DNA of 64,000 nt, taken from assembly GCA_964628445.1 (NCBI GenBank), contig CAZVOP010000002.1, positions 20,421 through 84,420 of the forward strand, read 5' to 3'. The translations under genes and the position numbers were made by a program. Source of the stretch: an uncultured Pseudobdellovibrionaceae bacterium (GTDB lineage: Bacteria; Bdellovibrionota; Bdellovibrionia; Bdellovibrionales; UBA1609). Position 1 is the stretch's first letter. The number at the start of each line of letters is the position of its first letter. Under the pieces are notes generated by a model. The model was not told where the DNA came from. It saw nothing but the letters and a program-made list of their open reading frames with translations, and made no database searches. Shown piece after piece: positions 36,739-55,656 of this stretch.

Positions 36739-36779
36739 TGGTCCGCCTTATCCTAAAGATACCCCATACGGAGAATCAC

Positions 36780-38225
36780 ATGAAACGGAAAGCTTCAGGC
36801 CTAGTCATTTGTTTTGCCCTTAGTACGCTCGGCGCTTGCACATCGAACGCCAAGCATGACTCACGCAGGCCTGCCTCGCTTATCGAAAATATCTCCACGG
36901 AAACGGCGCTCAGCGAAGTGATGAATGAGCAAAAAAGCTTGAACGAAGTTGAGAATCTGGCGATGACCGTCGCGCGCATTTACTTTCGCACTCAAGATTA
37001 CGTGCGCCAATTCGACCTGGAATTGGAAACCGCGCTAAAAAATCCCGAAGCTCCGGGCGCAAGAGATCTGATGACCGGTTGGACCTATGCGACCCTGATG
37101 GCCAGCCGCATGCTTTCCGAAGCGGCAACCGAGCGCATTGTCACTCAATATGAAAGTTTGATGACGTCTTACTGGGAAGCCTTGGACAAGAACACCGATG
37201 CGCGGGAAATCGCCCGCCAATTGATGGACTTTCGAAATAGCATCAACGAGGCGCGCTTTCTCACCGGCGCAAACCGGCTCGCCCTTCAAGATCTCGCGGC
37301 GGAGTTGAGCGTCGTGCCGCTTAAAACTTATACCGAATACCACGGCCCTCAAGCTCGCATACCCAGCGACGTCGCCTCGATACAAGACTTCAAATCGTTT
37401 TTATTTAAAGACAATGTCGAGCTTGCCGCTTTCGTGAATGAAAGTGGGAATCGCGCGGATTTAACCGCAAAGATTCAGCAAGCCCTGGCCAATGAGAAAG
37501 TTCTCCACCGGAACGTCATCTTGATGTCACCCATGATTCAAGTGCAACTCAAAGCCAACTCGGCCACGCGCGCGCCGCAAGCGATTGGGCCGGACGCGGG
37601 GGCCAGCGGCAATATTTCCGGAGAGAATTTTCCCAAAGGCACTTGGGCCCTCACCTTCGACGACGGACCCAGCCGTTTTACCTTGCAAATTCTCGCGAAC
37701 TTGCAAAGCCATGGCTTAAAAGCGAGTTTCTTTTGGCTGGCCCAAAACGTCAACTCGCCCGGCGCCGCCAAATACATCCAAGCCGCCAAGGCCGCGGGCA
37801 TGGATCTGAATAATCACTCTTACTCACACGCGAATTTGGTGAATCAAGGGGCCGCAGGCTTACAGCGCGAGATCGTCACCTCAACCGCCATCGAAACCCA
37901 AGCTTTTGGTTTCGCGCCGAAATATTTCCGCTGCCCTTACGGCTCGGGCCTGAACACGCCCCGCGTGCGCAGCATGATCGCCGGGCAAAATATGGTGCAT
38001 GTTTTTTGGAACGTCGACAGTCTCGATTGGCAAGACCACAATCCAGCAAGCATCGCCAAAAGGGTGCGCTCGCAAATGGAGCTGCAGGGGCGCGGGATCA
38101 TTTTGTTTCACGACATCCATCCGCAATCGGTCACCGCCAGCAACATGATCATGGACGATTTGGCGTCCAGCCGCTGGCGCTCACGCACGATCGACCAGAT
38201 CGTTAAAGAATTGAATGGCAAATAA
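36780..38225 (+). CDS. lipoprotein polysaccharide (peptidoglycan-type) deacetylase, NodB domain
   Basis: Lipobox STLGAC. All five NodB motifs are present: LTFDDGPS, HSYSH, FRCPYG, VDSLDW, ILFHDIH. The ~280-aa N-terminal domain is unrecognised. Confidence 0.85.
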   Translation: MKRKASGLVICFALSTLGACTSNAKHDSRRPASLIENISTETALSEVMNEQKSLNEVENLAMTVARIYFRTQDYVRQFDLELETALKNPEAPGARDLMTGWTYATLMASRMLSEAATERIVTQYESLMTSYWEALDKNTDAREIARQLMDFRNSINEARFLTGANRLALQDLAAELSVVPLKTYTEYHGPQARIPSDVASIQDFKSFLFKDNVELAAFVNESGNRADLTAKIQQALANEKVLHRNVILMSPMIQVQLKANSATRAPQAIGPDAGASGNISGENFPKGTWALTFDDGPSRFTLQILANLQSHGLKASFFWLAQNVNSPGAAKYIQAAKAAGMDLNNHSYSHANLVNQGAAGLQREIVTSTAIETQAFGFAPKYFRCPYGSGLNTPRVRSMIAGQNMVHVFWNVDSLDWQDHNPASIAKRVRSQMELQGRGIILFHDIHPQSVTASNMIMDDLASSRWRSRTIDQIVKELNGK

Positions 38226-39636
38226 TTTTCGGCCTAAGCATCTTAAGTTCATCGCCGCGGCTCTTTATGTCGTCTCACTCGCGGCGATGAAGATTTACAG
38301 CTCCGACAATTCCTTCTCGCTCTCCTTCGCCTCAAGCGATCCTATTTTGTCGTGCCTCGAGGAGAATCGCCGCAAAAATTGGGAGAACAGCAAAGACAAA
38401 GAGCCTACCCGGCCGGAGGATGAATATCCGGTTTCGCCCTACACGTACAGCGCGGTGAGCGCCGACGAACTGCCTAAGATTTGCCAAGACGGCGATTTAG
38501 GAAAATTCCAGGCCGCCTTAGAGAAACAAATCACGCGCTATCGCTCAATGAGACCCGAAGCGCACGCCAAAAAGAAATTCAAATTCGGCTGCAAGGTTTA
38601 TACGCGCCAAGAGTATGCGCTCGACACCAACGTCAAAATGCTCGAGATTGCGCGCAAATCGGGCTCCTTCCCCGCCTTCATTTCGCGCGCCAGTCATGAA
38701 TTCGACTGGTACCGGAGCGACGGCCGCCTTGACGACAGCGAAAATTATCCCGCGCTAAAAAAAGGCACCATGCAGTTCACCGCTTACTATCTGCCGGCGC
38801 CGCTCGAAGCTTCGCGCAAGCCCACTGAACTTTTGCGCCACCCGTTTTACAAAGTTCCGCCCGAGGTTGTGCATCTTGAAAACGATGAACCCGGAGATTG
38901 CGGCAAAGATCCAATCACCGGCAAAGCCGTTCGTTGGTGTTCTAAGCGAGAGGGCAAGTACTTTCCCCTGCCCAAGCGCAAGGACATCGATGCCGGTGGC
39001 GCCCTCAAAGATCAAGGTTTGGAGATCGGTTACGTCGCCGACCCGATCGATATCGCCTTCTTAATGGTGCAGGGCTCGGGCTCGCTGAATATCACCGAGG
39101 AAGACGGCTCCAAGCATGTGGTGCGGATCAACTACGGCGGGCAAAACGGCGGAATTCGTTACATGTTGTCCAGTATTTTAAAGTGCGCGGGCGCGGGCAA
39201 AGATCAATACTCCTCGATGAACGGCATTCGCGAGTACTTACGCAAAAAACCGCGAGCGCGGGCACGCCTGTTGAACTATGACGAGACCTACATATTTTTT
39301 AACGAGCAGGATGTCGGTCCCTTCGGCGTCGAAGACATCCCGATCACAGATCGCAGCACGATCGCCACCGATGTGAAAGTAATCCCGACTGGTGCCGTAA
39401 CGCTATTTAACCTGGAGAGGCCCGAAGGCCGCGTGGGCGAATGCGACCACATCACCAGCATGGCCGTCGCCCAAGATGTCGGCGGTGCCATTAAGGGTGC
39501 GCATGTCGATTGGTACCAAGGTGAGGGCGACGTGGCCGCAAGCCGCGCCAATAAGGTCAATAGCGCCGGCGTGCTTTACGTGGCGGTCCCAAAGGGTGCC
39601 GGGCGTGAAATCCCCGGCTGCAATGATTTGAACTGA
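38215..39636 (+). CDS. mltA: MltA-family lytic murein transglycosylase
   Basis: Blocks LMVQGSGSL, TYIFFNE, TIATD and VAQDVGGAIKGAHVDWYQGEG (3D domain). It overlaps the deacetylase gene by 11 nt. Confidence 0.8.
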   Translation: MANNFRPKHLKFIAAALYVVSLAAMKIYSSDNSFSLSFASSDPILSCLEENRRKNWENSKDKEPTRPEDEYPVSPYTYSAVSADELPKICQDGDLGKFQAALEKQITRYRSMRPEAHAKKKFKFGCKVYTRQEYALDTNVKMLEIARKSGSFPAFISRASHEFDWYRSDGRLDDSENYPALKKGTMQFTAYYLPAPLEASRKPTELLRHPFYKVPPEVVHLENDEPGDCGKDPITGKAVRWCSKREGKYFPLPKRKDIDAGGALKDQGLEIGYVADPIDIAFLMVQGSGSLNITEEDGSKHVVRINYGGQNGGIRYMLSSILKCAGAGKDQYSSMNGIREYLRKKPRARARLLNYDETYIFFNEQDVGPFGVEDIPITDRSTIATDVKVIPTGAVTLFNLERPEGRVGECDHITSMAVAQDVGGAIKGAHVDWYQGEGDVAASRANKVNSAGVLYVAVPKGAGREIPGCNDLN

Positions 39637-39663
39637 GACCGCCAAGCGTGCTATGACGTCGAA

Positions 39664-40170
39664 ATGAGCCCGAAAAACCCCCTCCATAAACAACTCGACG
39701 AACAGAAATTTCTGCACGGGGCCGCCTATGTCGAACAGGCCACCAAAGGGCCAAAGATTCTCACCACGGCCGAGCTCGCTTACTTGAACCAAATGCTCAC
39801 CGACAAAAACCGCGAGCCTTGGCGTCTTGAGCCGATGGCCGTGACGATTCCGACCGGAAAAACGCATCACTTCAATATATTAAGCAATCCCATTCCGCTC
39901 GCCCGCGAAATTATCGGCGACGCTTTCAGCGAAGCCGGAAACGGCGACGTCCGCGATGCGGCTTTGCACATCTATTCCAGACTTATCCTCGCGCATTTGT
40001 TCAACGACGCCAACCGCCGTACCGCCGCCTTGGCCGTGCTGTGGCTGCTGCGTTCGAACAACGCTTCGATCGATCCCATTGAGCTTGAGAAATTCCCGGT
40101 GGGGGATCTGCGCGACCCCGGCGACCTCGCCAAACTTGCGGAAAAACTGAAATCACTTATTGAGCGCTAG
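39664..40170 (+). CDS. Fic/Doc family protein, Doc-like motif
   Basis: HLFNDANRRTAALAV compared with the P1 Doc motif H-x-F-x-D-A-N-K-R-T as recalled. 168 aa. Confidence 0.7.
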   Translation: MSPKNPLHKQLDEQKFLHGAAYVEQATKGPKILTTAELAYLNQMLTDKNREPWRLEPMAVTIPTGKTHHFNILSNPIPLAREIIGDAFSEAGNGDVRDAALHIYSRLILAHLFNDANRRTAALAVLWLLRSNNASIDPIELEKFPVGDLRDPGDLAKLAEKLKSLIER

Positions 40171-40183
40171 GGGTTCATTGTCC

Positions 40184-41503
40184 ATGAGCAAACTCACGGC
40201 AACCGCTTTCTTGTTGTGGTCCGCGGCAGGGATTTCCTGTGCACATGTCTCACGCAAACCCGCGCAGTTTTCCGCAAAATCGGATCCCACGACGTGCCGG
40301 GAAGCCTTCGATGTATCTCTCGATCTCGAACCGGTCCGGCTTGGGCGCGAACAACAGTTGCGCGATTTCTCCATGGTCCTCGCCGTGGTCGCGGAAAAGT
40401 TTCCAGCTATGATTCAAGACTTCATGGCCCGCGCGGCGGACCACCCGGCGTGCGAAGACGAACGCAATGTCAAAAATTTCGCCGCCGAAATCCAGTACCG
40501 CTTGGATTATGTCTTCACCCGCATCGATCAATTCGGCAACGAAGATCAGGTCGCGCTTGCACTGAAGGAATCTTCCCTGCCGATGCAATATATCGCGCAA
40601 TTGTGCCCGCCGGCCGAGCTTAAAGAACGCTTAAATAAAAAAAACGCCGAATATGAAAACCTCAGCCGGCAATTGGATCCACGTTTCGAAGCCTTAAAGC
40701 ACGAGTTCGAAAAAGCTTTCACTATGCTCAAAGATTTGCGTAGGGATTATGCCCATTTTCAAGCCACCCGTAAGGCCGCCAAATGCGCTCCTCTCCCCGT
40801 CCCGGTTTGGCGTAAGAATCTTAATCGCTCCCTCGTCCGCATCGGCGTGAACTTCGGCCACGGTTCCGGCTTTTACGTCGCGGCGCCTGACGGACGCTTT
40901 CTGGTCACCGCTTCACACGTGACCGGCTTAAGCACGATCAATGCTGAGCAAGACGTGCAGCTGTCGTCGTCTGAAACGAATATAAAAAAGAAGGACCCGC
41001 TTCGCGATGTATTTTATCTTGAGCCCGGGTACGTCGATCAGGGGCGCGACATCACCTTCAAGAAAATCAAAACAAGCGGGCCATTCATCCCTGTCGTTAA
41101 GACGGGCGAGCGGCCGGAGCTGAATCAGAAATTTTATCTCACCGGATTTCCCAGCGTGAGCGGCGGAAAATTGCTGGGATTACAATGCTTGTTCAAAGGC
41201 TTTAGCGACGGCCCGCAAGGCAAAGATGTCTTCTACGCCATGGAATGCCCGGGGCGGCCGGACATCAAAGGCATGTCGGGCGGCGCCGCCGTCGGTAGTG
41301 ACGGACGAGTGTGGGGCGTGGTCGTTTCCACCCAAACATATACATCCTTTGCTTACGTCGCCCCACTGTCCAGCGATGAGGCCGGAAACTTGAAGCTCGG
41401 TATTCAACAAAATTTTATCAGCGATCTTTGCTATGACCGCCACGACATCGAGCCCCACCGCTGCCAAGTCATGCCCAATATGTACGAAGAGAATGTGCCC
41501 TGA
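40184..41503 (+). CDS. secreted trypsin-like (S1) serine peptidase with unrecognised N-terminal domain
   Basis: Signal peptide [40 protein letters not shown] supplies the His and GMSGGAAV the Ser. Confidence 0.75.
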
Positions 41504-41598: not shown

Positions 41599-41675
41599 CG
41601 GGGCGTGGCGCAGCCTGGTAGCGCGTTTGCTTCGGGAGCAAAAGGTCGCTGGTTCGAATCCAGTCGCCCCGACCA
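41599..41675 (+). tRNA. tRNA-Pro (anticodon CGG)
   Basis: Acceptor stem CGGGGCG/CGCCCCG. Also present: D arm GCGCAGCCTGGTAGCGC, anticodon stem TTTGC/GCAAA with loop TTCGGGA, T arm GGTTCGAATCC, discriminator A and encoded CCA. Confidence 0.95.
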
Positions 41676-42322
41676 AATTAAGTTCTCGAAAGTAAGAAGG
41701 ATTCTTACAAAATCAAAACTTAAGGTTCTACGGTTGATCTTCGTCTTTCCTAAAATTTAAGCTTCGTAACTCAAATTCTAAGAAGTTCTTGGGCTTGGGC
41801 GGATCCCTTTATCTAGCCTTCTGACGCATCACTTCTTGTCCAGACAAGAAGCGCTGCGTTCCACTACGAACCGAGAAGAGCCCAAACAAGTGTTTTATAA
41901 ACAGGTCATTTCTCCATCGCAAGGTACATGGCATTCCGAAGTTTTTGTTCCGATTTCCCGTTGGCCTGAAGCTGTTTTGTATTCCCAGAAGAGATGAACA
42001 GTAAATTGAAATCTGGCGCCCGTTTCATCTGTCATCATATCTGAAACTTGAGCTTGTGCGATGACGTTTCCCATCGGCGTTTCATGGCCGCTGAGCTGCT
42101 TCGCTTCGACCTTAAGTAAAAGTTTACCGTCGTTCAGAAATCCTGGATTGCCGGCAAATTTTTACTCTCGTTCAAAACAGCAAACACAACTCATGAACAA
42201 GAGAGGTCTTTATGGAACACTACGGAGTCGTTCTTAGGAATCGGGCATGTTTTTCATTTAAGCGTTCCTCGTTGACCAAATAGCTAGCGTGCCATATGTC
42301 CATCCCAAACCTGGAGTTATAG

Positions 42323-42733
42323 ATGAAAAAGAATCTAGCAATTTTATTAGTGCTCGGCACCTTTACCTTGAATGCATTCGCGATTGATTTCAAATCAATG
42401 GCGGGTCGTTTTTCTCTTGATAAAGGGAACTCTCCAGGCATTTGTATTGATCAAACTCTTTTAATTGGTTCGAGTTCAGACAAATCAGTTTTTATTGATG
42501 GTTTCGCCATCAATTGGCTGAGCGATGTTAACGACGGTTGGCAACTCGATGGTTATGGCGTCAATTATGTTAAAGCTACGTTTGATGGCACCACATTGAC
42601 TAAAAGCATTCGTGGGATTGAGGGAGTCAGGTCCACTACTTGGGCTATTGATTCAAATAATCAACGCTTAGTTATGAACCAATATTCTTATGGCCAGTTG
42701 TCCAATACTTGCAGTTTCACACGAGACCTTTAA
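42323..42733 (+). CDS. small hypothetical secreted protein
   Basis: TGGAG lies before the ATG; signal peptide MKKNLAILLVLGTFTLNAFA. 136 aa. Confidence 0.6.
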   Translation: MKKNLAILLVLGTFTLNAFAIDFKSMAGRFSLDKGNSPGICIDQTLLIGSSSDKSVFIDGFAINWLSDVNDGWQLDGYGVNYVKATFDGTTLTKSIRGIEGVRSTTWAIDSNNQRLVMNQYSYGQLSNTCSFTRDL

Positions 42734-42833: not shown

Positions 42834-43394
42834 TCAAGCTTGAAGTCGATAGCGAAGATAGATCCAGCCTTTGCTGAAGCGACGCTCGTCGAGCAGATCA
42901 AGTCTAATAGAGTAATTTTTGGGGAAGACCGGGATGACAGGGAAGGCGCCACTGATCGTCGTTGGAGCGACGAACAGATGAATTTCATCGACAAGCCCCG
43001 CGCGGATCGCTTGTGCGGCAAGGGTTGGACCACCCACGCACAGATCACCCGGCGACTTAGCTTTCATTTCGCGAATCTTTTGTTCGTCGAAATCCCGCTC
43101 AATGCGAGTTTTCTTGGTAGTCACTGAATCTATTGTTTTGGAATAAATAATTTTGTCGGCCAATTGCCATACTCGCCCGAACTCTTGATCATCCGCTCCC
43201 ATATTTTGAACATCCGGCGTTTCCCAGAAAGACATTGTCTCGTAATTTTTACGTCCGTATAGGTACGTTTTAAAAGGACGCATGACTTCAGTGATAAAGG
43301 CAGTTGAACCTTCAGTAGGTATAGACCAATCATAGTGCCCATCCCCGATATAACCATCCAGTGACATGACAGAAGCGTAGATTAGTTTAGCCAT
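42834..43394 (-). CDS. dihydrofolate reductase-like (RibD C-terminal domain) family protein
   Basis: MAKLIYASVMSLDGYI...YLYGRKNYETM...CVGGPTLAAQAIRAGLVDEIHLFVAP. Confidence 0.8.
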   Translation of the reverse strand: MAKLIYASVMSLDGYIGDGHYDWSIPTEGSTAFITEVMRPFKTYLYGRKNYETMSFWETPDVQNMGADDQEFGRVWQLADKIIYSKTIDSVTTKKTRIERDFDEQKIREMKAKSPGDLCVGGPTLAAQAIRAGLVDEIHLFVAPTTISGAFPVIPVFPKNYSIRLDLLDERRFSKGWIYLRYRLQA

Positions 43395-43432
43395 CGTTTA
43401 ACATCCTTTCTCTCACTTTCCCGACTCCTTAT

Positions 43433-44173
43433 TTACTTTCGCAGATTGATCTTTGTTAAATATTCGAGACAAGAACTCGTTCCAGCATAGTTCGGCATTA
43501 TTTTACTTAGATACTGAACCCGCGATTGTATCGGAGCTTTACTCGAAACTATTCGGTAGTCCGCAAACTGTGGATCTTCACTGAACTCTGTTACGCCTTT
43601 GGCGACCAGTTCCTTAAAAAAATTTCCGCCATCGCCTGCACTGCGATGGGTGCGCATCAATACCGTATGAGTAATATCAACGGCGTAGTAGGTCAAAAGG
43701 GTACCCCAAAAGGCCTCCGATGGCTGAAAGCTTTCGATTGATATAAGTCCAGTCAACGTTTGATCAAGCAAAGCTACGCCATAAACGGCGCCACTGGCTG
43801 CAACGGCCAAAGGTAATGACTTCAAACTTCGCATCGCGATATACGGAACTTTGCTTTTAAAGGCAGTCTTCCACGAAATATCAAAAGCGTAAATCCTTCC
43901 ATGCTTGTCAAGAATGTACGGCCATCCCCTAAACAACACAAGTTTTGAAACTGACCCGCGCCGGCTGATTCGCATTAAGTGACTTTCGCCGTTTGCGAGC
44001 ATACTGAGCAGATAAGCCGTGTCGTCGTCGCCGAGGACAACCCCAGAGCGTTGGGTGGCTTGCCCCTGAACGATAGTGACGTCACCAAATTTCATCGGCA
44101 ACCGGTTTTGGGCAAAGGCATTGGGAATGAAACAAAGAGTAACTAATACGTAAGGTAAGAGTAATTTCGGCAT
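43433..44173 (-). CDS. hypothetical secreted protein (island operon gene 5)
   Basis: Signal peptide MPKLLLPYVLVTLCFIPNAFA. It starts 13 nt after the upstream stop. No family recognised. Confidence 0.6.
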   Translation of the reverse strand: MPKLLLPYVLVTLCFIPNAFAQNRLPMKFGDVTIVQGQATQRSGVVLGDDDTAYLLSMLANGESHLMRISRRGSVSKLVLFRGWPYILDKHGRIYAFDISWKTAFKSKVPYIAMRSLKSLPLAVAASGAVYGVALLDQTLTGLISIESFQPSEAFWGTLLTYYAVDITHTVLMRTHRSAGDGGNFFKELVAKGVTEFSEDPQFADYRIVSSKAPIQSRVQYLSKIMPNYAGTSSCLEYLTKINLRK

Positions 44174-44186
44174 AAAAACCTTTCTA

Positions 44187-45080
44187 TTAAAAATTATCTT
44201 TCATCGGAGATTGCTCCTCGGAAATCTGAACTCTCATTACGCGGAAATTGGTCGAATAACCCCTGAGCGCCGAGAGCCAACTTCCTTCAATGTTAAAAAG
44301 TTGTTTATAGTCTATCTTGAGTTGCTTTCCGGTGAGCATCATCATCACCACATGATCGAACAGATCTTTGTCGTCGATACTTAGTCGAGTAAAACTTGAA
44401 CCGCCTTTGGACTCTTGAACCGTAATTTCGTAGGTCTTAAACAAGAGATGATCCATGGTTGCTTTTATGATGTGACCTTGGAGCGTACCACTTGTTAGCC
44501 CCACCATATCCTCAGAAGGGGCCTCGCCTTGCCCGATGGCAAACGATGCTGGAGCGTTGAAGTCGGGATTTACGGGCCATATTTTCGTAACAAAATTGTC
44601 AGTTCCGGCAAATACCGCTCGAAGCGAAGGAAGTTTAATCGCACCCGCCGCATCAGTGACAGCGCGAGTGTAATAGATCACAACCGGGGTTACAGAGGCC
44701 TTGTTAAATCTTTCATAGAGTTGCGGATCAACGGAGCTGAATTGCCAAGGATTTTTGCCGATAATGCAATCCTTAGCTACAGCTTTGAGCGCGTACTGCT
44801 TTCTATTTTCGTTCGCCAAACTCTGGGCGGCCGCCGTTTCACGCTCCAGGCAATCGTGATCCATTATTGTCATCGGAGTAGAATCGAAGCCCATCATCAA
44901 TTCGCCCTCATAATGCCAAAACCAATGCGAGCTAAATTGCAAAATCACACCAAGTCGAAACCCTTCCTCGCTATAAAGAGGATTGGGTGACCATCGAACC
45001 CTTGGTATTCCCTCTGGCAGCGATTCAGCACGTAAATTCGGAGTCAGTATAAAAATCAAAAGTAAGAGCACAACTTTCAT
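44187..45080 (-). CDS. hypothetical secreted protein (island operon gene 4)
   Basis: ATG 45080 is preceded by AAGGGGAAAGGGTGG. Signal peptide MKVVLLLLIFILTPNLRA. It starts 2 nt after the upstream stop. Confidence 0.6.
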   Translation of the reverse strand: MKVVLLLLIFILTPNLRAESLPEGIPRVRWSPNPLYSEEGFRLGVILQFSSHWFWHYEGELMMGFDSTPMTIMDHDCLERETAAAQSLANENRKQYALKAVAKDCIIGKNPWQFSSVDPQLYERFNKASVTPVVIYYTRAVTDAAGAIKLPSLRAVFAGTDNFVTKIWPVNPDFNAPASFAIGQGEAPSEDMVGLTSGTLQGHIIKATMDHLLFKTYEITVQESKGGSSFTRLSIDDKDLFDHVVMMMLTGKQLKIDYKQLFNIEGSWLSALRGYSTNFRVMRVQISEEQSPMKDNF

Positions 45081-45082
45081 AT

Positions 45083-46180
45083 TTACCACCCTTTCCCCTT
45101 GGCGAAGGTTTTAAGATTTTCGGCACTAAAATCAAATCGTATTGCGAGCACCGGCCTAAAATCCTTAAGATTAGTTACCAATTCGATTTCCTTGTCAGCC
45201 TCGTCATTCGACAAAAGAAATACCACCGGCCACCCTTCAGTCCTCATGAAGGGAACTTTGTAAAGCGACTCGAGCGTCTTCAGCCCAGTTATACAATCCC
45301 TGATTTTGAGGTCGCCGAAACGGCTGCATTCCACTCCGAGGCCATGACTTGCAATCGCGTTTTTCAACCCATTCAGAATATTGCGATCCCTTGTTAGGGC
45401 AGACTTGCGGGCGAGAGTTTCTAAATTAATCGATGGCTCTCGAATAGCTTGGTAAAGCTCATCCCTGCCGGCCGAAGCTTTCAGATCGAGCTTAAATTCC
45501 ATTGCCTCTTCGTGAGGGCCTTGGAAACGATCAGTAACGTAGATCGATTCCTCGGGCCCATCGAAGAGGCTAAGATCTTGTTTGGCCAGCGCCGTCAAGT
45601 TCATCAATGCGTTCCATTTTTCGGAAACTGAAAGGTGGGGATCAAAAGTTATCGGTATTGACAGATTGTCCTGAAGGTCCGCGAGTCCTTCATTAAATTG
45701 AGAATACAACGAGAGCCTTTTTTTAAATGAAGACCCGAGCATTGCCGCGTTGACAAACTCGGCCATTTGAAAAGAAGTCATTTGAAATGGCAAATACAGT
45801 TGAAGGTCTGTTTCGAATTCTTCAACCAAGGGACTCGCCGAATCCGTTAAAACAATTTTTAGTACAGGACCTGTGTTTTTTCCGGATAGAAATAATGATT
45901 CATGCAATCCCGTAGCAAAAGTACGCAAACCTCTTGCACACTTTACGTCTGTTATTTTATGAAAAAGTCCGCTTTTACATTCAATTCTAAACCCATAAGA
46001 ATTCAGAATTCTCCGAGGCAAATCACGACTGATTCCATGTACGCTCTGATCGGGCAAAGAGAGCAGTTCTTCGAAGAGCTCCCATGCATTTCGGAGATTC
46101 GAATTCATTTTTGACGGCTCTACGACCCCAGCGTGAGCCGCGATGGTCAAGAAGCAAAGGATGGTACAGATCGCTCTCAT
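45083..46180 (-). CDS. hypothetical secreted protein (island operon gene 3)
   Basis: ATG 46180 gives MRAICTILCFLTIAAHAG and an ATGA overlap with the upstream stop. Confidence 0.6.
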   Translation of the reverse strand: MRAICTILCFLTIAAHAGVVEPSKMNSNLRNAWELFEELLSLPDQSVHGISRDLPRRILNSYGFRIECKSGLFHKITDVKCARGLRTFATGLHESLFLSGKNTGPVLKIVLTDSASPLVEEFETDLQLYLPFQMTSFQMAEFVNAAMLGSSFKKRLSLYSQFNEGLADLQDNLSIPITFDPHLSVSEKWNALMNLTALAKQDLSLFDGPEESIYVTDRFQGPHEEAMEFKLDLKASAGRDELYQAIREPSINLETLARKSALTRDRNILNGLKNAIASHGLGVECSRFGDLKIRDCITGLKTLESLYKVPFMRTEGWPVVFLLSNDEADKEIELVTNLKDFRPVLAIRFDFSAENLKTFAKGKGW

Positions 46181-47265
46181 CGCAGGCGACCAATAGGCTG
46201 GAGACCCAACTGTTGATTGATTTGGCCCAAGTGGGCTCTCAGCCATGGCTCATATAAACTTGCGACCTGAATTTTTATTTGGCCCAAATATGTAATATAA
46301 ATTTGAGGCGATGCGATGGGGGTTCGCAGGAGATCCTCGAGCTCCTTCATTTGCTCGTCCCAGCTTGCTAAAATCACTTTTTGATATTCACTTTGCGGAG
46401 GAAGAATGGCTCGATCGACGTAGTGATACCCCAAGCCCTCTCCCGCCAGAGCCAAGCCGCGCGTTCCAAAAACAAGTCCAGGCTGAACTGCTGCGGGTAC
46501 GACAATGAAAAGTCTCTCGGCCATCGTAGCCACCGCGGCTGGTGCAAATTCCCAAAAGACAAGAGAAGTGACTGTGGCTAAAGCGAGAACTCCCCAGGAT
46601 ACTTCATTTCTAAAATCCTCCTGCTGGGTCGCGACTTTCAATAACCGATCGGTGATTCGTTCGAGTCCGAAAAGCCCCGGGTTTCCTAAAACATCACGAT
46701 TGAAGCGGGAGAGATCCCTCACGAGGAGATCGAAATTTTCATTGATGGCATCTCGGTTTTCAAAGTGACACGAGGAATGTATGTGTCGATCAATGGTTCC
46801 GTAGCCGGCCTCGCTCTCATTTATAAAAAGAGCATGCAGACCGAATAGGCCGGGTATTAATAGGCGCAGGCGTGTGGAAGTCAATAAGTCTTCATCGGTC
46901 ATCTGGTCGATTTTTTTGAAAGTCCCCAGTGATTGAATGGGTCGATCTATCTGTTTTACGAGCTCTCTTAGAACCCTTGAATAGCGGTCACAGAATCTTA
47001 GGTGACCTGGGGATGTGTTGCGAAATTGGTTTTGCAGAAGATTGGCCTCTTTATGAATGCGACGCTGTAGAATCTCCTTTTCTGATCGAGAAAGAATTGG
47101 CGGAGATCCATGCATCATTTCCCAGTATATTCTCTGCACCGGCTCATTCGCCCAACTGTCGTTACAAGAAAGGCCAAACATAACCGTCAAAGCTATAACC
47201 GCAATTCTTCGATAGAAAAGGCGCGCTCTTCGAGCGCGCCTTTTCTTGGCTTCCTGGATATTCAA
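46177..47265 (-). CDS. hypothetical membrane/exported protein with Arg-rich N-terminus (island operon gene 2)
   Basis: MNIQEAKKRRARRARLFYRRIAVIALTVMFGLSC is followed by an internal hydrophobic stretch, VSWGVLALATVTSLVFWEFAPAAVA. It starts 1 nt after the upstream stop. Confidence 0.6.
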   Translation of the reverse strand: MNIQEAKKRRARRARLFYRRIAVIALTVMFGLSCNDSWANEPVQRIYWEMMHGSPPILSRSEKEILQRRIHKEANLLQNQFRNTSPGHLRFCDRYSRVLRELVKQIDRPIQSLGTFKKIDQMTDEDLLTSTRLRLLIPGLFGLHALFINESEAGYGTIDRHIHSSCHFENRDAINENFDLLVRDLSRFNRDVLGNPGLFGLERITDRLLKVATQQEDFRNEVSWGVLALATVTSLVFWEFAPAAVATMAERLFIVVPAAVQPGLVFGTRGLALAGEGLGYHYVDRAILPPQSEYQKVILASWDEQMKELEDLLRTPIASPQIYITYLGQIKIQVASLYEPWLRAHLGQINQQLGLQPIGRLR

Positions 47266-47266
47266 T

Positions 47267-49231
47267 TTACTGACCTCTTTGCGGGGGCTCCTCGTAAATC
47301 AACGAGATCTGGCTAAGTCGTTCATCGGGCACCAGGCTTTCTAAATATACAGTCTGGTAATCTTGGCCATGTTCATGACCGCGGCCATATGCCGAATAGT
47401 ATAGTCCATATAGAGGAATGGCAGATCCTGCACCGGCAGTGAGCGCCCATGATTTATCGAAACTTCTGAGCGCCGGCTTAACCGCATCGACCGCACCACC
47501 GTACACTCGACGTGATCCACTTGCGGCATCTCTAACGGATTCTTTCGCCATCTGAGCAAAATTATGGCTCGCCTCAGACACTTTATCCCTCGCTAAAGAA
47601 ATCTTTTGGCCGAGTTTATTACCGGGCCCTTCGTCCGCCGCGGCAACTTGGGTTTCATCCAATGTGCTCTGTGAAGGATGAATTTCCTCACCGCTATTCA
47701 TAGGCACAATTCCTTCAGCTTCGGCCTCCGCACGGGTCGGCGAAATATGAGTAGCACTTTCAGCCAATTGCGTGTCGAATTCTGCTTCGATATTTTCACT
47801 AGGTATGCGCGTAGAAATCACCGCTCCGGAATCCGTATCCACTATTTTAGCAAACTCGCGACCACCAAGCTCAGGCGCCTTATATTCGATGCTTTTTATA
47901 AAATCCTCGGCTTCGTGCACCGTCATTTTTTTGGACGAGACTGGCCGCCTTCCAAGCACGCCGAGAGTACGCGGCAGGCTAAACAAAATGACACGCTCAG
48001 TGTCGAGCCTTACGCCGTCAAAAGTGTCACTGACCGCATATCGAAATCCGGGCAAATTCGTCGGGTTGAACATTTGGAATTCGGTCTCAAGTTTCGTAAC
48101 AGGAACAAGATCCAAAGCACGAATACCCTCATCAGACACTCCAAGCGCTTTTAAATTTCTCTCGGCTACCTGCTCTGCAGGCAGACGTTTTATGGATTTT
48201 ATGGAACTGATTGCACTAGAAGTGCGGGCGGCCAAAGAGCGGACTCCATTGCTCGCGCTCATAATGGCTTCACGCGCGCGAGAAGTGCCACCCTTGAACA
48301 TTGTGCCAATTCTAGGATATTCATGAACTACGTCACGCATGCGATCCAAGCCATGAAAGCCAGCAACTGTTCCAATCGCGACGGAGCCTCCAGCTATCAA
48401 CAGTCCATCACGCAATACATCTGCGTTCTGATCATCCTTGATTCTTTGATCAAGGTTGGCCTGCAAATATGCCACCCGCCTCGTGGTGTCTTTGTCATAA
48501 AGATTTCTTTCAGAGAGATGGCGAATCCCCAGTTGGACTTCCATTATTTTTGCACGGGCCATTTCCGGTTCGTTAAAAATCTCATCTATAAGCTTAAAGG
48601 TCAGCGGTTCAATACGAGCGGGGTTGCCTTCCGAGACCAAGGCCGCAAGCAATGTTGTTGTTTCATCTGCGGGTCTCACCGCTGAGAAAACATCACTTCG
48701 TGGCTCTGGACCAGTCACTAACACGACTTGCCTTAGAGCCTCTAAATTCTTTTCGCGCAAATTTTGTGAGGCCTCTCTTGATTCATCCATAGAATCGCGC
48801 CGATTCACGGAGTCCAACGGAGGACGAAGGGCGGCGCCTATGGCTGAGGCTTTATCTCCAAGGTAATCTTTGGTACTTGATGCACCATTAGAGACATAGT
48901 CTTTTGCATCAGCTAATTTATTCTCGATCAGACTCCCCCAAGGGACCGAATGCGGATTGTCTTTGTCGCGGTTCATTTCCGCTTGGCTCGCATTTTTATC
49001 AGATTGAGCATGTTGAGAATCAGAATTGGCCACCTGAACATTCGAGTTATCAGAATTTGAATTTTTGGACTCTTTGGCTTCTTGAGACGGTTCCTCCTGC
49101 TTTTTATTAGGCTGCTGATCTTCTTGGTGGGTAGACTTTTGTGGGGCAGGCTTTGGCGATTCGTCTTTGCTGCAACCCACCGTTAGAATGCAGCAAGTAG
49201 ATAGTGCTGCCAAAATCGTAGTATGTCTCAT
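47267..49231 (-). CDS. hypothetical lipoprotein with low-complexity N-terminal region (island operon gene 1)
   Basis: GGAGG lies 6 nt before ATG 49231. The product begins MRHTTILAALSTCCILTVGCSKDE (lipobox), followed by a ~70-aa Q/K/E/S/N/D-rich segment. Confidence 0.65.
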   Translation of the reverse strand: MRHTTILAALSTCCILTVGCSKDESPKPAPQKSTHQEDQQPNKKQEEPSQEAKESKNSNSDNSNVQVANSDSQHAQSDKNASQAEMNRDKDNPHSVPWGSLIENKLADAKDYVSNGASSTKDYLGDKASAIGAALRPPLDSVNRRDSMDESREASQNLREKNLEALRQVVLVTGPEPRSDVFSAVRPADETTTLLAALVSEGNPARIEPLTFKLIDEIFNEPEMARAKIMEVQLGIRHLSERNLYDKDTTRRVAYLQANLDQRIKDDQNADVLRDGLLIAGGSVAIGTVAGFHGLDRMRDVVHEYPRIGTMFKGGTSRAREAIMSASNGVRSLAARTSSAISSIKSIKRLPAEQVAERNLKALGVSDEGIRALDLVPVTKLETEFQMFNPTNLPGFRYAVSDTFDGVRLDTERVILFSLPRTLGVLGRRPVSSKKMTVHEAEDFIKSIEYKAPELGGREFAKIVDTDSGAVISTRIPSENIEAEFDTQLAESATHISPTRAEAEAEGIVPMNSGEEIHPSQSTLDETQVAAADEGPGNKLGQKISLARDKVSEASHNFAQMAKESVRDAASGSRRVYGGAVDAVKPALRSFDKSWALTAGAGSAIPLYGLYYSAYGRGHEHGQDYQTVYLESLVPDERLSQISLIYEEPPQRGQ

Positions 49232-49437: not shown

Positions 49438-49854
49438 TTACTGTTTATATTTAGCGTACTCTTGTTTTTGACGCCTCCGGTAAAAAAGCGTTGAGCGATT
49501 AAAGCCGAAGTAGCGAACAGCCTTTCTCCGGCTCATGCCAAAGCGTTGTTTTACGGTGGCGACTAAATCTTCGGGTGATCTCGAGGCTAACAATTTGTTT
49601 GTTTTAATGAAATCGGTAAGAACCTGAATGTGAAGTAAGCAATCCGAAAGGTGTTTTTTTAAAGACCTGTTTTGGCGCTCCAGCGAACGGAACCGATCAA
49701 ATTGTTCAGTCGTCATTTCGCCGAATTTGCGCTTCCATAGATAGGCGGTGCGAATGTTCAGGCCCAGGCGCTCGGCCACTGTCGTAAGTTTTTCACCGCG
49801 TCTTACCGCGCTAAGGAACTCTTTGATTTGTTTATCTGAAAATTCTCGTCTCAT
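49438..49854 (-). mobile_element. IS3-family transposase OrfA-like HTH protein without a DDE domain (IS remnant or domesticated)
   Basis: MRREFSDKQIKEFLSAVRRGEKLTTVAERLGLNIRTAYLWKRKFGE fits the IS3/IS911 OrfA HTH. The tail, FGMSRRKAVRYFGFNRSTLFYRRR, resembles the start of OrfB. No catalytic ORF follows. Confidence 0.6.
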
Positions 49855-50090: not shown

Positions 50091-50912
50091 ATGTCAGATT
50101 TCAAGACTCCATTTTTCATTTTGCTTTTTTCCCACGCGATCATCATCTCTGGATGCCGGAAAAATGTTCACAGCGGAAAGTTTAGTTCTCCTAACAAAGA
50201 TCAGACAACGAAGACCGAGCCGAATCCCTCAAATAGACCTATGCCGCAGGCTGACGATACACCTTTCAAAGACGATCGAACTAAACTTGCTCAGGAACTT
50301 TGGGCGACAACATTGGGTGAGATGTTCAATGAATATTTGTTTGGTGTAGCCGGAGCATCGGCAATACCCAAGCAGTCGCAACTCTTAGTCGACCGCATTT
50401 TTGACAAACCCTACCTACTCATCACTCGAATTGCGGCACTTCAATTCCTAAGTGAAGACCTCTACTCGGAAGGTCGGATGACGGAAGATGCGACGCGAAG
50501 GCTTCTCATTCTTGAGGGAGCCGTTTCTGAAAGACGATTATCCCGCGTCGAGGCCGGCTATTTTTCTCTCATTGAGCAAGCGATTCCGTTTGTCCTAGTT
50601 TCAATTCCCTTTGGCTCACCAGCTGTTCGAGAAGAGGTCATGCATGGAGTTCGAAATCTCGCGACCAGATTTAAATCGATGTGGTCACCGGGATCTGAAA
50701 CCCTGGAGACAATCAATTGGCATCGCCTAGGAATGCGAAATGCAATTAACGGTTATCAATTCGCAAAAGCGCTTCAATTTCTCGTCAATACCTATGGTCC
50801 CTATTCAACAGCTTACTTAATTGCTTATCCATACATCAAGGCATCTACGCAAGGACCTAATCGCGACTTCTTGCTAAGGTCAGATCGTTTGCTACAAATG
50901 GACCCTCTTTAG
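50091..50912 (+). CDS. hypothetical lipoprotein
   Basis: MSDFKTPFFILLFSHAIIISGCRKN contains a lipobox. No family recognised. Confidence 0.6.
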   Translation: MSDFKTPFFILLFSHAIIISGCRKNVHSGKFSSPNKDQTTKTEPNPSNRPMPQADDTPFKDDRTKLAQELWATTLGEMFNEYLFGVAGASAIPKQSQLLVDRIFDKPYLLITRIAALQFLSEDLYSEGRMTEDATRRLLILEGAVSERRLSRVEAGYFSLIEQAIPFVLVSIPFGSPAVREEVMHGVRNLATRFKSMWSPGSETLETINWHRLGMRNAINGYQFAKALQFLVNTYGPYSTAYLIAYPYIKASTQGPNRDFLLRSDRLLQMDPL

Positions 50913-51015: not shown

Positions 51016-52449
51016 TTACGGCAGACCGTAGATCTGCACGCTATTCACATCGAGATAGAACGGGCCCGGGTACTTGACCGGATCGGCGACGGTATGCCAG
51101 CCCGTGGTGAGCGGACCGGCGACTTCCACGTCCATCAACACCTGATATTTGGCATTGGTCGGAATACCGTTCGTGTAAGTCGCAATCAGCTTCCCGTCCA
51201 GATAGATATTGATGCTCTTACCGGGGCGGTATTCCACTCCGTACACATGATAAGCGGCTGAAAGATCCATGCCCGAATCTTTAATGACTTGGGATGCGCC
51301 TGAACCGTGGAAGTTCGAAGCGATGACATTGTTCGGGTTCGTGGATCCGCGGGTGTAGCCGGATTCGATCACGTCAATTTCGGGTCCGTTCGCACTGAGC
51401 AGCCACAAGCCGGCCCATGCGCCATAGCGGGAATCGGGCATCCGCGCGCGGAATTGAACGTAACCACCGCTCGCCGGAAGGTAAAGCTTGCCGAAACTGC
51501 TCACGGCGGCTGAAGAAAAGGAATATCCCAAATTCGAGAAGTGGCTGCTGGCTTTCATAATGAATCTCAGATTGCCGTTGCCACCCACCAAGCTGTTGCC
51601 CGTGATGTTGGTGCCAGTTCCATACGGATACGGATCATAGTACTGAATATTGAATGAGTTCGAACACGAGCTGTTGCAATTCATGCCCGAATAAGGACTC
51701 GCTAAATGGCCTTGGTCGCCCCAGCGTCCGTACTGATCGTCACCCATATACGGATTCCATTTTGTCGCATCTAAAGCCGCGGCCGTGAATTTATCTTCAA
51801 AGATCAATTGCGCGGAAGAGTAACCAACAGGAGCCGCCAGTGACGTTGAATCCGGAGCCGGAGCCGGCGTAGGCGTAGGTGTTGGCGTAGGTGTAGGTGT
51901 GGGAGGCGGCGGAGCGCTGGCCACAACCATCACCACGTTGTCGATCGAGACGTTGCTCGCGACATCTCCCATATCGAAGTTCAGGCTGGCGCCCGAGTCG
52001 GAAGATTTGGGTGTAAATGTAAAATTAAATGTCTTCCATTTAGTGCTTACGTTGAAGTGATTGAGACTGTACCAACTGTAAGGAGAAACCGCTTGCTGAA
52101 CGCCGACTTCAAGACTGCGAGCCTTGGAGGCTTTGGCCGAAAACGTAACGGTCACGGACTGCCCGGCAACAAGAGGAAGCCCCGTCTGTCTCAAGGCTGC
52201 ACAGTACGCACATCCTGAGACGGATTTCCAAACTTGTATGGCCTCCGAATAGGTTCCGGCCGTGCGACTCGCCGAATCCAGGTACTGAGTCCCGGTCGCG
52301 CCGCCCGAAAGAAGAAAACTCCAGGATGTTAAGCCGGATTCGAAAGATCCATTCTTAATCACGTTCGTCGCGGCGTTGCCTTGTGCTGAGAAGATGGTGA
52401 ACAGCGCACAATATAAGCTTCTCCACCACCACTGTTGATTCGTTGCCAT
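51016..52449 (-). CDS. secreted glycoside hydrolase family 16-like beta-glucanase with N-terminal CBM-like domain and Pro/Thr linker
   Basis: GH16 blocks: GAWAGLWLL, GPEIDVIESGY (ExDxxE), AAYHVYGVEYRPGKSINIYLDG. The N-terminal NVIKNGSFESGLTSWSF is CBM4/9/22-like. Confidence 0.8.
   Translation of the reverse strand: MATNQQWWWRSLYCALFTIFSAQGNAATNVIKNGSFESGLTSWSFLLSGGATGTQYLDSASRTAGTYSEAIQVWKSVSGCAYCAALRQTGLPLVAGQSVTVTFSAKASKARSLEVGVQQAVSPYSWYSLNHFNVSTKWKTFNFTFTPKSSDSGASLNFDMGDVASNVSIDNVVMVVASAPPPPTPTPTPTPTPTPAPAPDSTSLAAPVGYSSAQLIFEDKFTAAALDATKWNPYMGDDQYGRWGDQGHLASPYSGMNCNSSCSNSFNIQYYDPYPYGTGTNITGNSLVGGNGNLRFIMKASSHFSNLGYSFSSAAVSSFGKLYLPASGGYVQFRARMPDSRYGAWAGLWLLSANGPEIDVIESGYTRGSTNPNNVIASNFHGSGASQVIKDSGMDLSAAYHVYGVEYRPGKSINIYLDGKLIATYTNGIPTNAKYQVLMDVEVAGPLTTGWHTVADPVKYPGPFYLDVNSVQIYGLP
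51853..51912 (-). repeat. short tandem CCN/ACN repeat encoding a PPPPTPTPTPTPTPTPAPAP linker
   Basis: Read directly: 20 codons of Pro alternating with Thr or Ala inside the GH16 gene. Confidence 0.9.
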
Positions 52450-52559
52450 AGTTAACCCCCAATAAAAGTTGTGACCTCTACAAACGAGCCTACGGACGGA
52501 TGGGAAAAGTTGAAACTGACAAACATGGTGATGTGAGGAGGGCGTCCTGACAAATTTGG

Positions 52560-54044
52560 TTATGAGGCCTGCGTCTTAAGCTGAGACGTGAATTTATAAC
52601 CGGCCGGGCGTTTTGTGGGGCCGATTCGCTGCAGTTCTCCGGACTCGATCGCTTTGCGCAAGAGACGATGGGTGGAGGTGGTCGATATTCCGAGTTCACG
52701 CTGAATCTGAGCTGCCGAAAAAATAGAAAGATCGGTAAACGCAGTTTTCAGCCTCTGCACCTGAAGAAAATGTGAATCGGTTGGGCAGCGCTCGCGCGAG
52801 ACCCGAAACGAAAATTCCCCGAGAATTTTCAACGAATAAAATTCCTGATCGCAAAGGATGTCCACCGGTATGCGTGCCGACTCCAGCCATCGGCGCGTCC
52901 GGCGAATGATCTGATGCACTCGATCCGGCGACGTCGAAATATTGAAATGTTCTTCGGGAAATAAAGCCGAGTGAAGTCCCGCGATTTGATTGGGCTGATA
53001 GAAATCCCTGAGCAGAATCTCAATCAGCTGATGACATTTAAAATTTGCGCGAAGTCCCGAGTGTCCGTCGATTTCGCCCGACGCGAGGTCAAAGCAAGGC
53101 GCGGATTCCGGGCCCACGACAAAGGTCTCTTGATCAGGCCTCCGGCCGAACTCGCGCCAAATGCGCTCGCGGAAGCCGGACAAAGGCGAACCGAAATAGA
53201 GATGAAGAAATCTCGGCTCCTCAAAGCGAACCTTCAAAGAGTAAAGATCGGCCTCGCGCAAGGCATTCCATTGGCGATTGGTTTCGGCCAATTGACGAAG
53301 CTCATTGAACGGTTCGAGGCTTTTGGCGTCCAAGCCGTCCAAAATCAATTTCAATTTGTTGGCGAAGAAATGAGTGCTGTTGCTCCCGCCATCGAAATGC
53401 CGAAGCGCCAAATCAACGGCCCGTCTTGCCAAGAGAAAATTCCCTTCCTCAAGATGGATTTGCCCAAGCAGCGCGTGGTTGTAGTTTTCCAGATGGAAGT
53501 GGCCGCGTTCTTTCGACAATTGAATATTTTTGTCCGCCAAGACTGAGGCTTGATTGAAGTGACCGCATTCCGAGTGCGCGAAAGCGAGATTCGATTGGCC
53601 GACGAGAGCCGCATCCGGTGAAAGTTCGCAGCTGAGATAATTTTCCAGACTGGGAATGGCCGCTGAAAATTCCCAACGGGCAAAGTACACAAAAGCGCGG
53701 ATCAAATTCACTTCAGGCACGGCGCGGGCGTCGAGGCGCTCCAATTTTTTTAGGGCCTCATGGACGGCGCCGCTGCGTAACAGAAGTGCGGCGTACTCCG
53801 TGATTTCCTCAGGCCTTGCGGAGTCACTGTTCGTCCTGAACTCGGCCTGATTGACTAAGCGATCGAGCAAACGGAGGCCCATCGAATACTGGCCGGCGCG
53901 CCGGCAAATCTTGGCGAGAGGAAGGCGCCACTCCCTCGGCACGCGCATCGGCTTAATCTGAGAAAGATGCTTGGCCGCCTCACGGGATTTTCCGCCGCGA
54001 ATCAAGGCGTCACAGGATGCGATTAACGTCTCAAATTGGTTCAT
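52560..54044 (-). CDS. putative transcriptional regulator: TPR-like repeats plus C-terminal winged-HTH-like segment
   Basis: 494 aa, helical-repeat rich. The C-terminus reads FSAAQIQRELGISTTSTHRLLRKAIESGELQRIG. It is divergent from the GH16-like genes. Confidence 0.55.
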   Translation of the reverse strand: MNQFETLIASCDALIRGGKSREAAKHLSQIKPMRVPREWRLPLAKICRRAGQYSMGLRLLDRLVNQAEFRTNSDSARPEEITEYAALLLRSGAVHEALKKLERLDARAVPEVNLIRAFVYFARWEFSAAIPSLENYLSCELSPDAALVGQSNLAFAHSECGHFNQASVLADKNIQLSKERGHFHLENYNHALLGQIHLEEGNFLLARRAVDLALRHFDGGSNSTHFFANKLKLILDGLDAKSLEPFNELRQLAETNRQWNALREADLYSLKVRFEEPRFLHLYFGSPLSGFRERIWREFGRRPDQETFVVGPESAPCFDLASGEIDGHSGLRANFKCHQLIEILLRDFYQPNQIAGLHSALFPEEHFNISTSPDRVHQIIRRTRRWLESARIPVDILCDQEFYSLKILGEFSFRVSRERCPTDSHFLQVQRLKTAFTDLSIFSAAQIQRELGISTTSTHRLLRKAIESGELQRIGPTKRPAGYKFTSQLKTQAS

Positions 54045-54152
54045 TCAAATGGTCCTATCCCTTTGACGGATCGGATGAATCTGTAAACGGCAAAAGGGGC
54101 TTAAGCCGGGCCGGACCCGGATTTTTCCATCATTGTCAGTTGGTGCCGATGG

Positions 54153-54187
54153 CATCCCCAATATACAATAGATGTATATTGGGGATG
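54153..54187. promoter_or_regulatory. perfect 15-bp inverted repeat (operator or 5'-UTR hairpin candidate)
   Basis: CATCCCCAATATACA (54153-54167), spacer ATAGA, TGTATATTGGGGATG (54173-54187). It lies in the divergent intergenic region. The right arm contains one candidate ATG (54185) and ends 12 nt before the other (54200). Confidence 0.5.
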
Positions 54188-54199
54188 GGGTTCGTCCGT

Positions 54200-55645: not shown

Positions 55646-55656
55646 TTGATGAATGG

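Follow-up and report, generated by a model that had tools for sequence, protein, structure and literature searches.

The question raised by this locus is whether a tightly packed run of genes for exported proteins without recognisable relatives can be a system in its own right. We analysed a stretch of 64,000 nucleotides (nt) from an uncultured Pseudobdellovibrionaceae bacterium (hereafter the window), in which six open reading frames (ORFs) follow each other on the minus strand at 42834-49231, joined in order by gaps of 1 nt, a 4-nt ATGA overlap, 2, 13 and 38 nt. An earlier reading of these letters (the original prediction) had described a six-gene operon for five exported proteins of no recognisable family and one DHFR-like protein; the ORF listing agrees with its six minus-strand ORFs, their coordinates and their junctions. 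In this study, we found that the first five genes, g1 to g5, belong to a cassette that recurs in 13 other loci, and we place this cassette outside all known kinds of system, where 'new' means that it is unassignable and does not stand for a demonstrated function. Together with u273, a short lipoprotein paralogue of g1 encoded close by, g1 to g5 have in our estimate about an even chance of forming an inner-membrane-anchored, mostly periplasmic complex, which would act in structure, scaffolding or gating.

The conservation of the cassette became visible by profile searching. A word-index search recovered three g1 homologues only, the same kind of search with g3 returned only g3 itself, exact look-ups of g4 and g5 were without success, and a first metagenome scan using g1 motifs found nothing. 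An exhaustive HMMER profile search with g1 through 1.84 billion representatives retrieved 41 clusters at E <=1e-3, 20 of these at E <=1e-30. The families were then mapped in fetched loci by tblastn and jackhmmer. Thirteen other loci (L001-L003, L006-L009, L011-L014 and the P0002 and P0004 contigs; Table 1) had homologues of g1 to g4, usually accompanied by g5, in one cluster, with identities of 20-60%. The genes g1, g2, g3 and g4 occur together wherever a locus is long enough to show them, and their order is the same in most loci, with L006 and L007 rearranged. Overlaps of 4 nt or gaps of a few nt recur across the loci, though some junctions differ. Among the g1 relatives examined, even the most distant one (profile E 4e-7) has a g2 homologue behind it. 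Co-occurrence of the genes beyond this genome, which the original prediction had proposed to check, was thus found in 13 further loci. The loci range in guanine plus cytosine (G+C) content from 42 to 61%. Their flanking genes differ between the loci and frequently have housekeeping functions (LpxK, rpsD, rpmE, ffh/rpsP, acyl-CoA dehydrogenase); therefore, the cassette forms an autonomous unit and does not belong to any larger conserved neighbourhood. All 20 representatives whose source was looked up derive from metagenomes or metagenome-assembled genomes (MAGs), and L002 (MBX3022124.1) comes from a Bdellovibrionales MAG.

Since each of g1 to g5 has conserved homologues at other loci, the five are evidently real genes and not chance ORFs. 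The shorter starts chosen in the original prediction agree with the database copies of the window proteins (654, 365 and 297 amino acids (aa)) and are backed by the N-termini of the homologues. A GGAGG motif preceding the g1 start is kept in the window and in L001. In the same two loci the TTG start of g2 lies 1-3 nt past the g1 stop (47263-47265 in the window, 4853-4855 in L001). The retention of this weak start is consistent with translational coupling by re-initiation. Promoter and terminator scans performed no better than on shuffled sequences, and an Rfam scan of the window and nine loci found only the one tRNA and no riboswitch.

Two further features tie the genes to each other. In L002, L009, L012, L013 and the P0002 contig, g2 and g3 are fused into a single ORF (685-729 aa where complete), and the signal peptide of g3 is lost in these fusions. 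Because the fused g3 follows g2 without a signal peptide of its own, the C-terminus of g2 and g3 must share a compartment. The second feature is the position of g5, which adjoins g4 in L002, L003, L011 and L012 as confirmed by sequence, convergently in three of them. An ORF of g5 size stands at the g5 position in P0002 (246 aa) and P0004 (251 aa), an assignment with size alone as its basis. Where g5 is inverted it lies only 0-6 nt from the g4 stop (L002, L011, L012, and likewise P0004, where the ORF is again identified by size only). The linkage of g4 and g5 is kept without co-transcription in these loci. The inverted copies lie at 14895-15665 (L002), 15588-16373 (L011) and 14937-15695 (L012), all on the minus strand; g5 is co-directional in the window and in L003.

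The cassette also includes a gene beyond the coordinates of the original prediction. The 273-aa lipoprotein u273 (lipobox ISGC) is related to g1 by BLASTP (E 0.001) and by hhalign (probability 93.5%, E 2.3e-7), and jackhmmer likewise ties it to the g1 family. It retains the linker, the helical domain, a hydrophobic helix and the Tyr-rich tail of g1, and is without the alpha/beta insert. Genes like u273 stand inside the cassette in L011 (12776-13636) and L006 (16137-16898). On this evidence of homology and position, u273 is apparently part of the system.

Table 1. Features of the cassette region in the window (coordinates are window positions) and gene order or gene sizes in the 13 related loci.
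Feature or locus	Position	Strand	Product length or gene order	Remark
g1	47267-49231	-	654 aa, counted from second ATG	lipoprotein
g2	46177-47265	-	362 aa, TTG start	predicted Sec signal peptide
g3	45083-46180	-	365 aa	predicted periplasmic, signal peptide; start overlaps g2 stop (ATGA)
g4	44187-45080	-	297 aa	predicted beta-rich periplasmic, signal peptide
g5	43433-44173	-	246 aa	signal-peptide protein
g6	42834-43394	-	186 aa	RibD_C / DHFR-like, PF01872
g0	49438-49854	-	138 aa	IS3 OrfA-like HTH, PF01527
u273	50091-50912	+	273 aa	lipoprotein, short g1 paralogue; divergent from g0 and g1
tRNA-Pro (CGG)	41599-41675	+		1.16 kb from g6
L001			g0 - g1 - g2 - g3, then contig end	
L002			g1 - g2g3 fused - g4 - g5 inverted	
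L003			g1 - g2 - g3 - g4 - g5	516/372/374/295/246 aa; g1 about 23-27% identical
L006			g1 - g2 - g3, then second g1 paralogue - u273-like - g4	
L007			g3-like - g1 - g2 - g4 - g1 paralogue	
L008			g2 - g3 - g4	
L009			g1 - g2g3 fused - g4	
L011			g1 - g2 - u273-like - g3 - g4 - g5 inverted	
L012			g1 - g2g3 fused - g4 - g5 inverted	
L013			g1 - g2g3 fused, then contig end	
L014			g1 - g2, then contig end	
P0002 contig			634 - 685 - 299 - 246 aa	gene sizes; g1 and g4 sequence-confirmed
P0004 contig			657 - 344 - 367 - 303 aa, 251 aa inverted	gene sizes; g1 and g4 sequence-confirmed

None of the five exported proteins could be assigned to a family. Among the window proteins, g1 to g5 had no match in Pfam, NCBIfam, PADLOC or PHROGs, and PADLOC returned no family for any window protein at E up to 1. 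Pfam searches with 41 members of the g1 family gave noise only. Pfam and NCBIfam searches with 24 sequences (the g2 to g5 and u273 families plus a neighbouring gene of L009) gave noise and one YkuD match, which belongs to the L009 neighbour and not to a cassette member. Enzyme or NTPase families were found neither in the 41 g1-family members nor in the cassette members of the 24-sequence set. Profile searches against PDB sequences yielded nothing credible for any of the five families. A match of g4 to a designer pentatricopeptide repeat protein in the PDB (E 7e-6), in which no stretch passed, was judged compositional and spurious, and matches of g1 to SHERP, YtxH and calnexin reflect amphipathic or low-complexity segments. 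Structure prediction with AlphaFold2 (AF2) followed by Foldseek covered g1 and g4. The g4 model, built from six sequences, is mediocre (pLDDT, the predicted local distance difference test, 61.6; predicted template modelling score 0.64), and against the PDB it gave only partial matches resembling the oligonucleotide/oligosaccharide-binding fold (best E 0.027, template modelling score about 0.1). The g1 model had no match in the PDB (best E 1.8) or in BFVD (best E 0.46). By hhalign the five families are mutually unrelated (probabilities <=1.1%), and a literature search found no description of the cassette. The original prediction had recognised no family in these five proteins and had itself named sensitive profile and structure searches as a check that might refute it; the library and PDB profile searches for all five families and the structure searches for g1 and g4 agree with it, and placed nothing in a known family.

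In g1, the lipobox LTVGC ends in Cys20, a column at least 90% conserved across the 41 family representatives, and a PROSITE-style lipobox pattern matches 35 of the 41 members. The 654-aa lipoprotein with this lipobox and a polar spacer, as originally described, is therefore borne out. Behind the lipobox follows a disordered, polar, low-complexity linker of about 75 aa, the length of which differs widely among family members, and then amphipathic helices, a helical domain (160-245) and a hydrophobic helix, H1 (274-294). Next come an insert that bears an alpha/beta domain (350-500) and another hydrophobic helix, H2 (595-615), and the protein closes with a tail in which YLESLVP is conserved. H1 and H2, which flank the insert of about 300 aa, are rich in Gly, Ala and Ser, with a small-xxx-small spacing at S283-G287-G291; the hydrophobicity of H1 is 1.4-2.2 Kyte-Doolittle units. 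The AF2 model of g1, computed with 41 diverse sequences as input, consists mainly of long helices and one alpha/beta domain, with a mean pLDDT of 72.6 and values above 90 for about 160-290 and 350-500. Across 37 members of the family, the net charge per 20 residues changes from -0.9 before H1 to +1.7 after it, and from +0.9 before H2 to -2.2 after it, and in the 'mini' member P0042 an Arg-rich loop of 18 residues joins H1 and H2. This charge bias follows the positive-inside rule and therefore fits a predicted topology in which the insert is cytoplasmic and both the N-terminal domain and the YLESLVP tail are periplasmic.

For g2, a Tat-like (twin-arginine translocation) or lipoprotein signal had been proposed from its Arg-rich n-region and its GLSC motif. 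Neither the n-region nor the Cys is conserved, and the homologues end in AXA-like sites. The twin Arg of the window copy is variable or missing in the others, and both candidate assignments, Tat substrate and lipoprotein, were rejected. The N-terminus is better read as an ordinary Sec signal peptide with a SWA|NE-type site. The internal hydrophobic stretch noted in g2 is in turn conserved among homologues: helix 222-243 is followed by a weaker second helix (0.4-1.7 Kyte-Doolittle units) and then by a C-terminal domain, and the loop between the two helices carries on average 1.0 Lys/Arg and 0.09 Asp/Glu. With the g2 C-terminus and g3 in one compartment, both flanks of this region would be periplasmic; therefore, it would form a transmembrane or re-entrant hairpin or else not be embedded in the membrane. 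An invariant Cys pair, C92/C166, is present in the predicted periplasmic domain of g2, as are C68/C81 and C285/C296 in g3, which also has a conserved C-terminal KGW, and C77/C105 in g4. These invariant pairs indicate an oxidising, extracytoplasmic location. The N-terminal signal peptides originally assigned to g3, g4 and g5 were all recovered. Conserved motifs of g5 are GWPYILDK and GGNFF, and the protein is probably periplasmic. Its internal segments are weakly hydrophobic and were rejected as transmembrane helices, being of low hydrophobicity and not conserved; in the window copy, the flanking charges read from the sequence oppose the positive-inside rule as well.

From these features we infer complex formation, topology and inner-membrane localisation. 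Several features together argue that the proteins work as one assembly: translational coupling, a conserved gene order, the fusion of g2 with g3, a g5 that stays beside g4 despite its inversion, and the pattern of paralogues. In the proposed complex, g1 would be acylated at Cys20 and hold its helical N-domain in the periplasm, while H1 and H2 would dip into or cross the inner membrane, bracketing the cytoplasmic insert and leaving the tail periplasmic; u273 would be the same scaffold minus the insert. The Sec-exported g2 would consist of two periplasmic all-alpha domains joined by a re-entrant or transmembrane hydrophobic hairpin, and would bind g3 directly, as the single-ORF fusions suggest. 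The subunits g3, g4 and g5 would be disulfide-stabilised and periplasmic. Glycine-zipper-like small-xxx-small helices likely mediate oligomerisation of the membrane assembly. A structural, scaffolding or gating role is expected rather than that of an enzyme or ATP-driven machine, because no catalytic or nucleotide-binding motif is apparent. The original notion of a coupled, envelope-targeted set thus stands for five signal-bearing genes linked in 13 loci; what did not hold is simple export, since g1 and probably g2 appear to be membrane-embedded.

Several points weigh against such a complex. H1 of g1 and the second helix of g2 are only moderately hydrophobic and could be buried helices of soluble proteins. 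The long linker of g1 would have no evident purpose if lipid anchor and hairpin share one membrane. The patchy, accessory distribution, the low G+C content and the neighbouring gene resembling an insertion sequence (IS) would also fit a weapon or a niche factor. Finally, a known fold in g2, g3 or g5 is possible, the structure search having covered g1 and g4.

The likeliest of the named alternatives is a secreted multi-component weapon, in which a soluble all-alpha g2 and g1 would be released and insert hidden hydrophobic hairpins into a target (prey) membrane, in the manner of the bi- and tripartite alpha-pore-forming toxins of the ClyA family, with g3 to g5 as accessory or receptor-binding components. 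The mature g2, about 330 aa long and helical by eye, carries a conserved hydrophobic helix-loop-helix some two-thirds along the chain, which is the general layout of ClyA/YaxAB/Hbl-type toxins, and its moderate hydrophobicity is that of toxins needing solubility. The accessory, patchy distribution, the low-G+C stretch with an adjoining IS-like gene, the many secreted lytic enzymes encoded in the surroundings (MltA, deacetylase, protease, GH16) and the Bdellovibrionales origin of one carrier point the same way. However, no toxin family was matched in Pfam, NCBIfam or PDB sequences, the five families are unrelated by hhalign whereas ClyA-type components are paralogues, and no secretion-system genes are linked in the fetched loci. 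In addition, the lipoprotein nature of g1 and u273, with a charge pattern that places the insert in the cytoplasm, is incompatible with release. We therefore consider a weapon unlikely.

It is also tempting to speculate that the cassette signals across the membrane, with g2 to g5 sensing an envelope or prey cue and the g1 insert relaying it inward, perhaps to the helix-turn-helix (HTH) protein g0. In line with this, g1 alone has a predicted cytoplasmic domain, which is its best-conserved and best-modelled part (pLDDT >90 for 350-500), the gene immediately upstream encodes an HTH protein both in the window and in L001, and histidine kinases or response regulators are found near the cassette in L002 and L006. 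These kinase neighbours are not conserved, however, and g0 was confirmed in L001 only, the other loci with sequence being without it. The alpha/beta domain of g1 has no signalling match (PAS-like Foldseek hits at E >=2 and probability <=0.11), and the 'mini' paralogues are retained despite having no insert. Signalling thus seems quite unlikely.

Similarly doubtful, in our judgement, is a more far-reaching version of the envelope complex, in which g1-type proteins would be doubly anchored trans-envelope tethers, with the lipid anchor in the outer membrane, the hairpin in the inner membrane and the disordered linker between them. Together with g2 to g5 they might then build an undescribed trans-envelope apparatus of all-new folds, possibly in Bdellovibrio-like predators, for envelope remodelling during prey attack or invasion.

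The last of the six ORFs, g6, was correctly recognised as RibD-C/DHFR-like: it matches PF01872 (E 5.9e-13; 49.5 bits versus a gathering cut-off of 24.1; domain positions 2-195 of 197) and scores under every NCBIfam equivalog cut-off. The further loci with sequence, 11 distinct ones, contained no g6 homologue, and no g6-type gene appeared in the Pfam annotation of the neighbouring genes on the P0002 and P0004 contigs. By this distribution, g6 is apparently a neighbour and not a conserved component, although it may be co-transcribed here, and the proposed six-gene unit is reduced to five genes.

Upstream of g1, g0 matches PF01527 (E 1.1e-9) and only positions 2-128 of 369 of the NF033516 model. 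It resembles an IS3-family OrfA (InsN-like HTH) in combining HTH_Tnp_1 with the leucine-zipper part of the transposase model, and differs from IS3 in having no OrfB/DDE domain. No OrfB/DDE partner was found, and the 206 nt of non-coding sequence before g1 leave no room for one. A g0 homologue with 41% identity occupies the same position in L001 (2312-2848, plus strand), the two loci being only about 50% identical; among the more distant loci with sequence it was not found, so that this closest relative alone keeps it. An active IS3 insertion sequence was rejected, since OrfB is missing and L001 has the same orphan arrangement. Potentially, g0 may be a domesticated transposase fragment that acts as a regulator in this sub-lineage.

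Other observations on the related loci concern extra copies and neighbours. A stand-alone second g4 occurs in L011 (1444-2343, plus strand) and a second partial cassette in L006 (14500-17834), and L012 and L013 are two distinct cassettes from one sequencing run (SRR10663367). In one sub-clade, two signal-peptide proteins (about 175 and 320-384 aa, no Pfam match) are encoded by a conserved pair of divergent genes directly upstream of g1, located on the minus strand at 500-4032 in L009, 3-995 in L003 and 8054-9746 in L011. Beyond this pair, L009 encodes a 679-aa P-loop GTPase of MMR_HSR1 type with a C-terminal hydrophobic hairpin, which is dynamin-like in layout only.

The window cassette was also described as a tRNA-linked island. 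A low-G+C stretch at about 42-50 kb (0.45-0.49 versus 0.52-0.55) is indeed present, and tRNA-Pro marks one of its edges, whereas neither integrase remnants nor att-type direct repeats were found near tRNA-Pro. The description as tRNA-linked applies to this genome only, no tRNA having been found in the fetched flanks of six other loci scanned. Past the tRNA, about 650 bp (41676-42322) contain no convincing ORF and no integrase remnant, and an orphan 136-aa signal-peptide protein (42323-42733, plus strand) has no homologue in any fetched locus. On the other side of the cassette, at 51016-56754, lie three genes of glycoside hydrolase family 16 (GH16), one of them with CBM_4_9 and a Pro/Thr linker, that share repeats of 59-96 nt; they are evidently a paralogous glycoside-hydrolase cluster beside the cassette. 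At 35446-41503 lie genes for two lytic transglycosylases of MltA/3D type and for a polysaccharide deacetylase, as well as for a Fic-domain protein and a trypsin-like protease that is secreted. This content of secreted and cell-wall-active genes (MltA, deacetylase, protease, GH16) would fit a predatory lifestyle. Further away, a fused EIIA-HPr-EI protein (850 aa) and an EIICB permease (22132-26404, plus strand) make up a complete sugar phosphotransferase system in two genes.

Cargo of a mobile element, anti-phage defence or chance adjacency is largely refuted and highly improbable, for although the low G+C content, the tRNA-Pro 1.2 kb away, the IS3 OrfA-like gene and the Cap15-like and HTH_17 genes upstream in L001 point in this direction, there are no PADLOC or PHROG matches, nothing in phage, plasmid and IMG/VR collections, and no integrase, att repeats or catalytic transposase gene, other loci sit amid housekeeping genes (LpxK, rpsD, rpmE, ffh/rpsP), export signals on all products are unusual for defence systems, and the 13 loci, with their conserved gene order and fused genes, rule out chance. 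The remaining probability falls to functions that the analysis cannot name.

If the inner-membrane complex is the correct reading, the cassette encodes an envelope module that is complete in itself, with five to six subunits from families without a described relative; its carriers so far are all uncultured, and at least one belongs to the Bdellovibrionales. Metagenomes commonly contain conserved gene clusters for hypothetical exported proteins, and the significance of this one stays potential until a phenotype is assigned to it. The 13 loci and five alignments provide a basis for defining new Pfam families. The g2-g3 fusion predicts a direct interaction, and the topology model can be tested by reporter fusions. 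Research on predatory bacteria gains in the cassette a candidate for envelope or predation machinery that is specific to a lineage. As for structural biology, the two modelled proteins, g1 and g4, have no similar solved structure, and the confidently modelled regions of g1 (160-290 and 350-500) are without a Foldseek match in the PDB.

How, then, does the cassette compare with known systems? The signature families of Tol-Pal, the type IV pilus alignment complex, the Gld/type IX secretion system, Lpt, Mla and Bam gave no subunit match in the library scans, and the g1 and g4 models had no PDB match. With the ClyA family (ClyA, YaxAB/XaxAB, AhlABC/SmhABC, Hbl/Nhe) it has in common tandem genes for proteins of about 350 aa that are helical by eye, and g2 shares, at the sequence level, a central hydrophobic helix-loop-helix of moderate hydrophobicity. 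It differs in that g1, g2 and their homologues have no Pfam, NCBIfam or PDB-sequence similarity to this family, that its components are not paralogous, that it has a lipoprotein and beta-rich subunits, and that the charge pattern of g1 is that of a resident membrane topology. The glycine-zipper lipoproteins SlyB and Pcp resemble g1 in being lipoproteins with paired Gly/Ala/Ser-rich small-xxx-small helices, which are adjacent in the 'mini' versions of g1. However, none of the 41 family members matches Gly-zipper_Omp or Rick_17kDa_Anti at E <=0.01, g1 is far larger, with an insert of 300 aa between the helices, and its charge bias suggests the inner and not the outer membrane. Tol-Pal, PilMNOP and GldKLMN are alike in architecture only. 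The cassette has no sequence or profile similarity to these families and no OmpA-like, secretin or beta-propeller partner, and the conserved membrane-embedded acidic residue of the TolQR, ExbBD and GldL motors is not apparent in the alignments. What is shared are translationally coupled genes with no ATPase in the operon, a lipoprotein with a long disordered linker, one- to two-helix proteins with large periplasmic domains, and soluble periplasmic partners.

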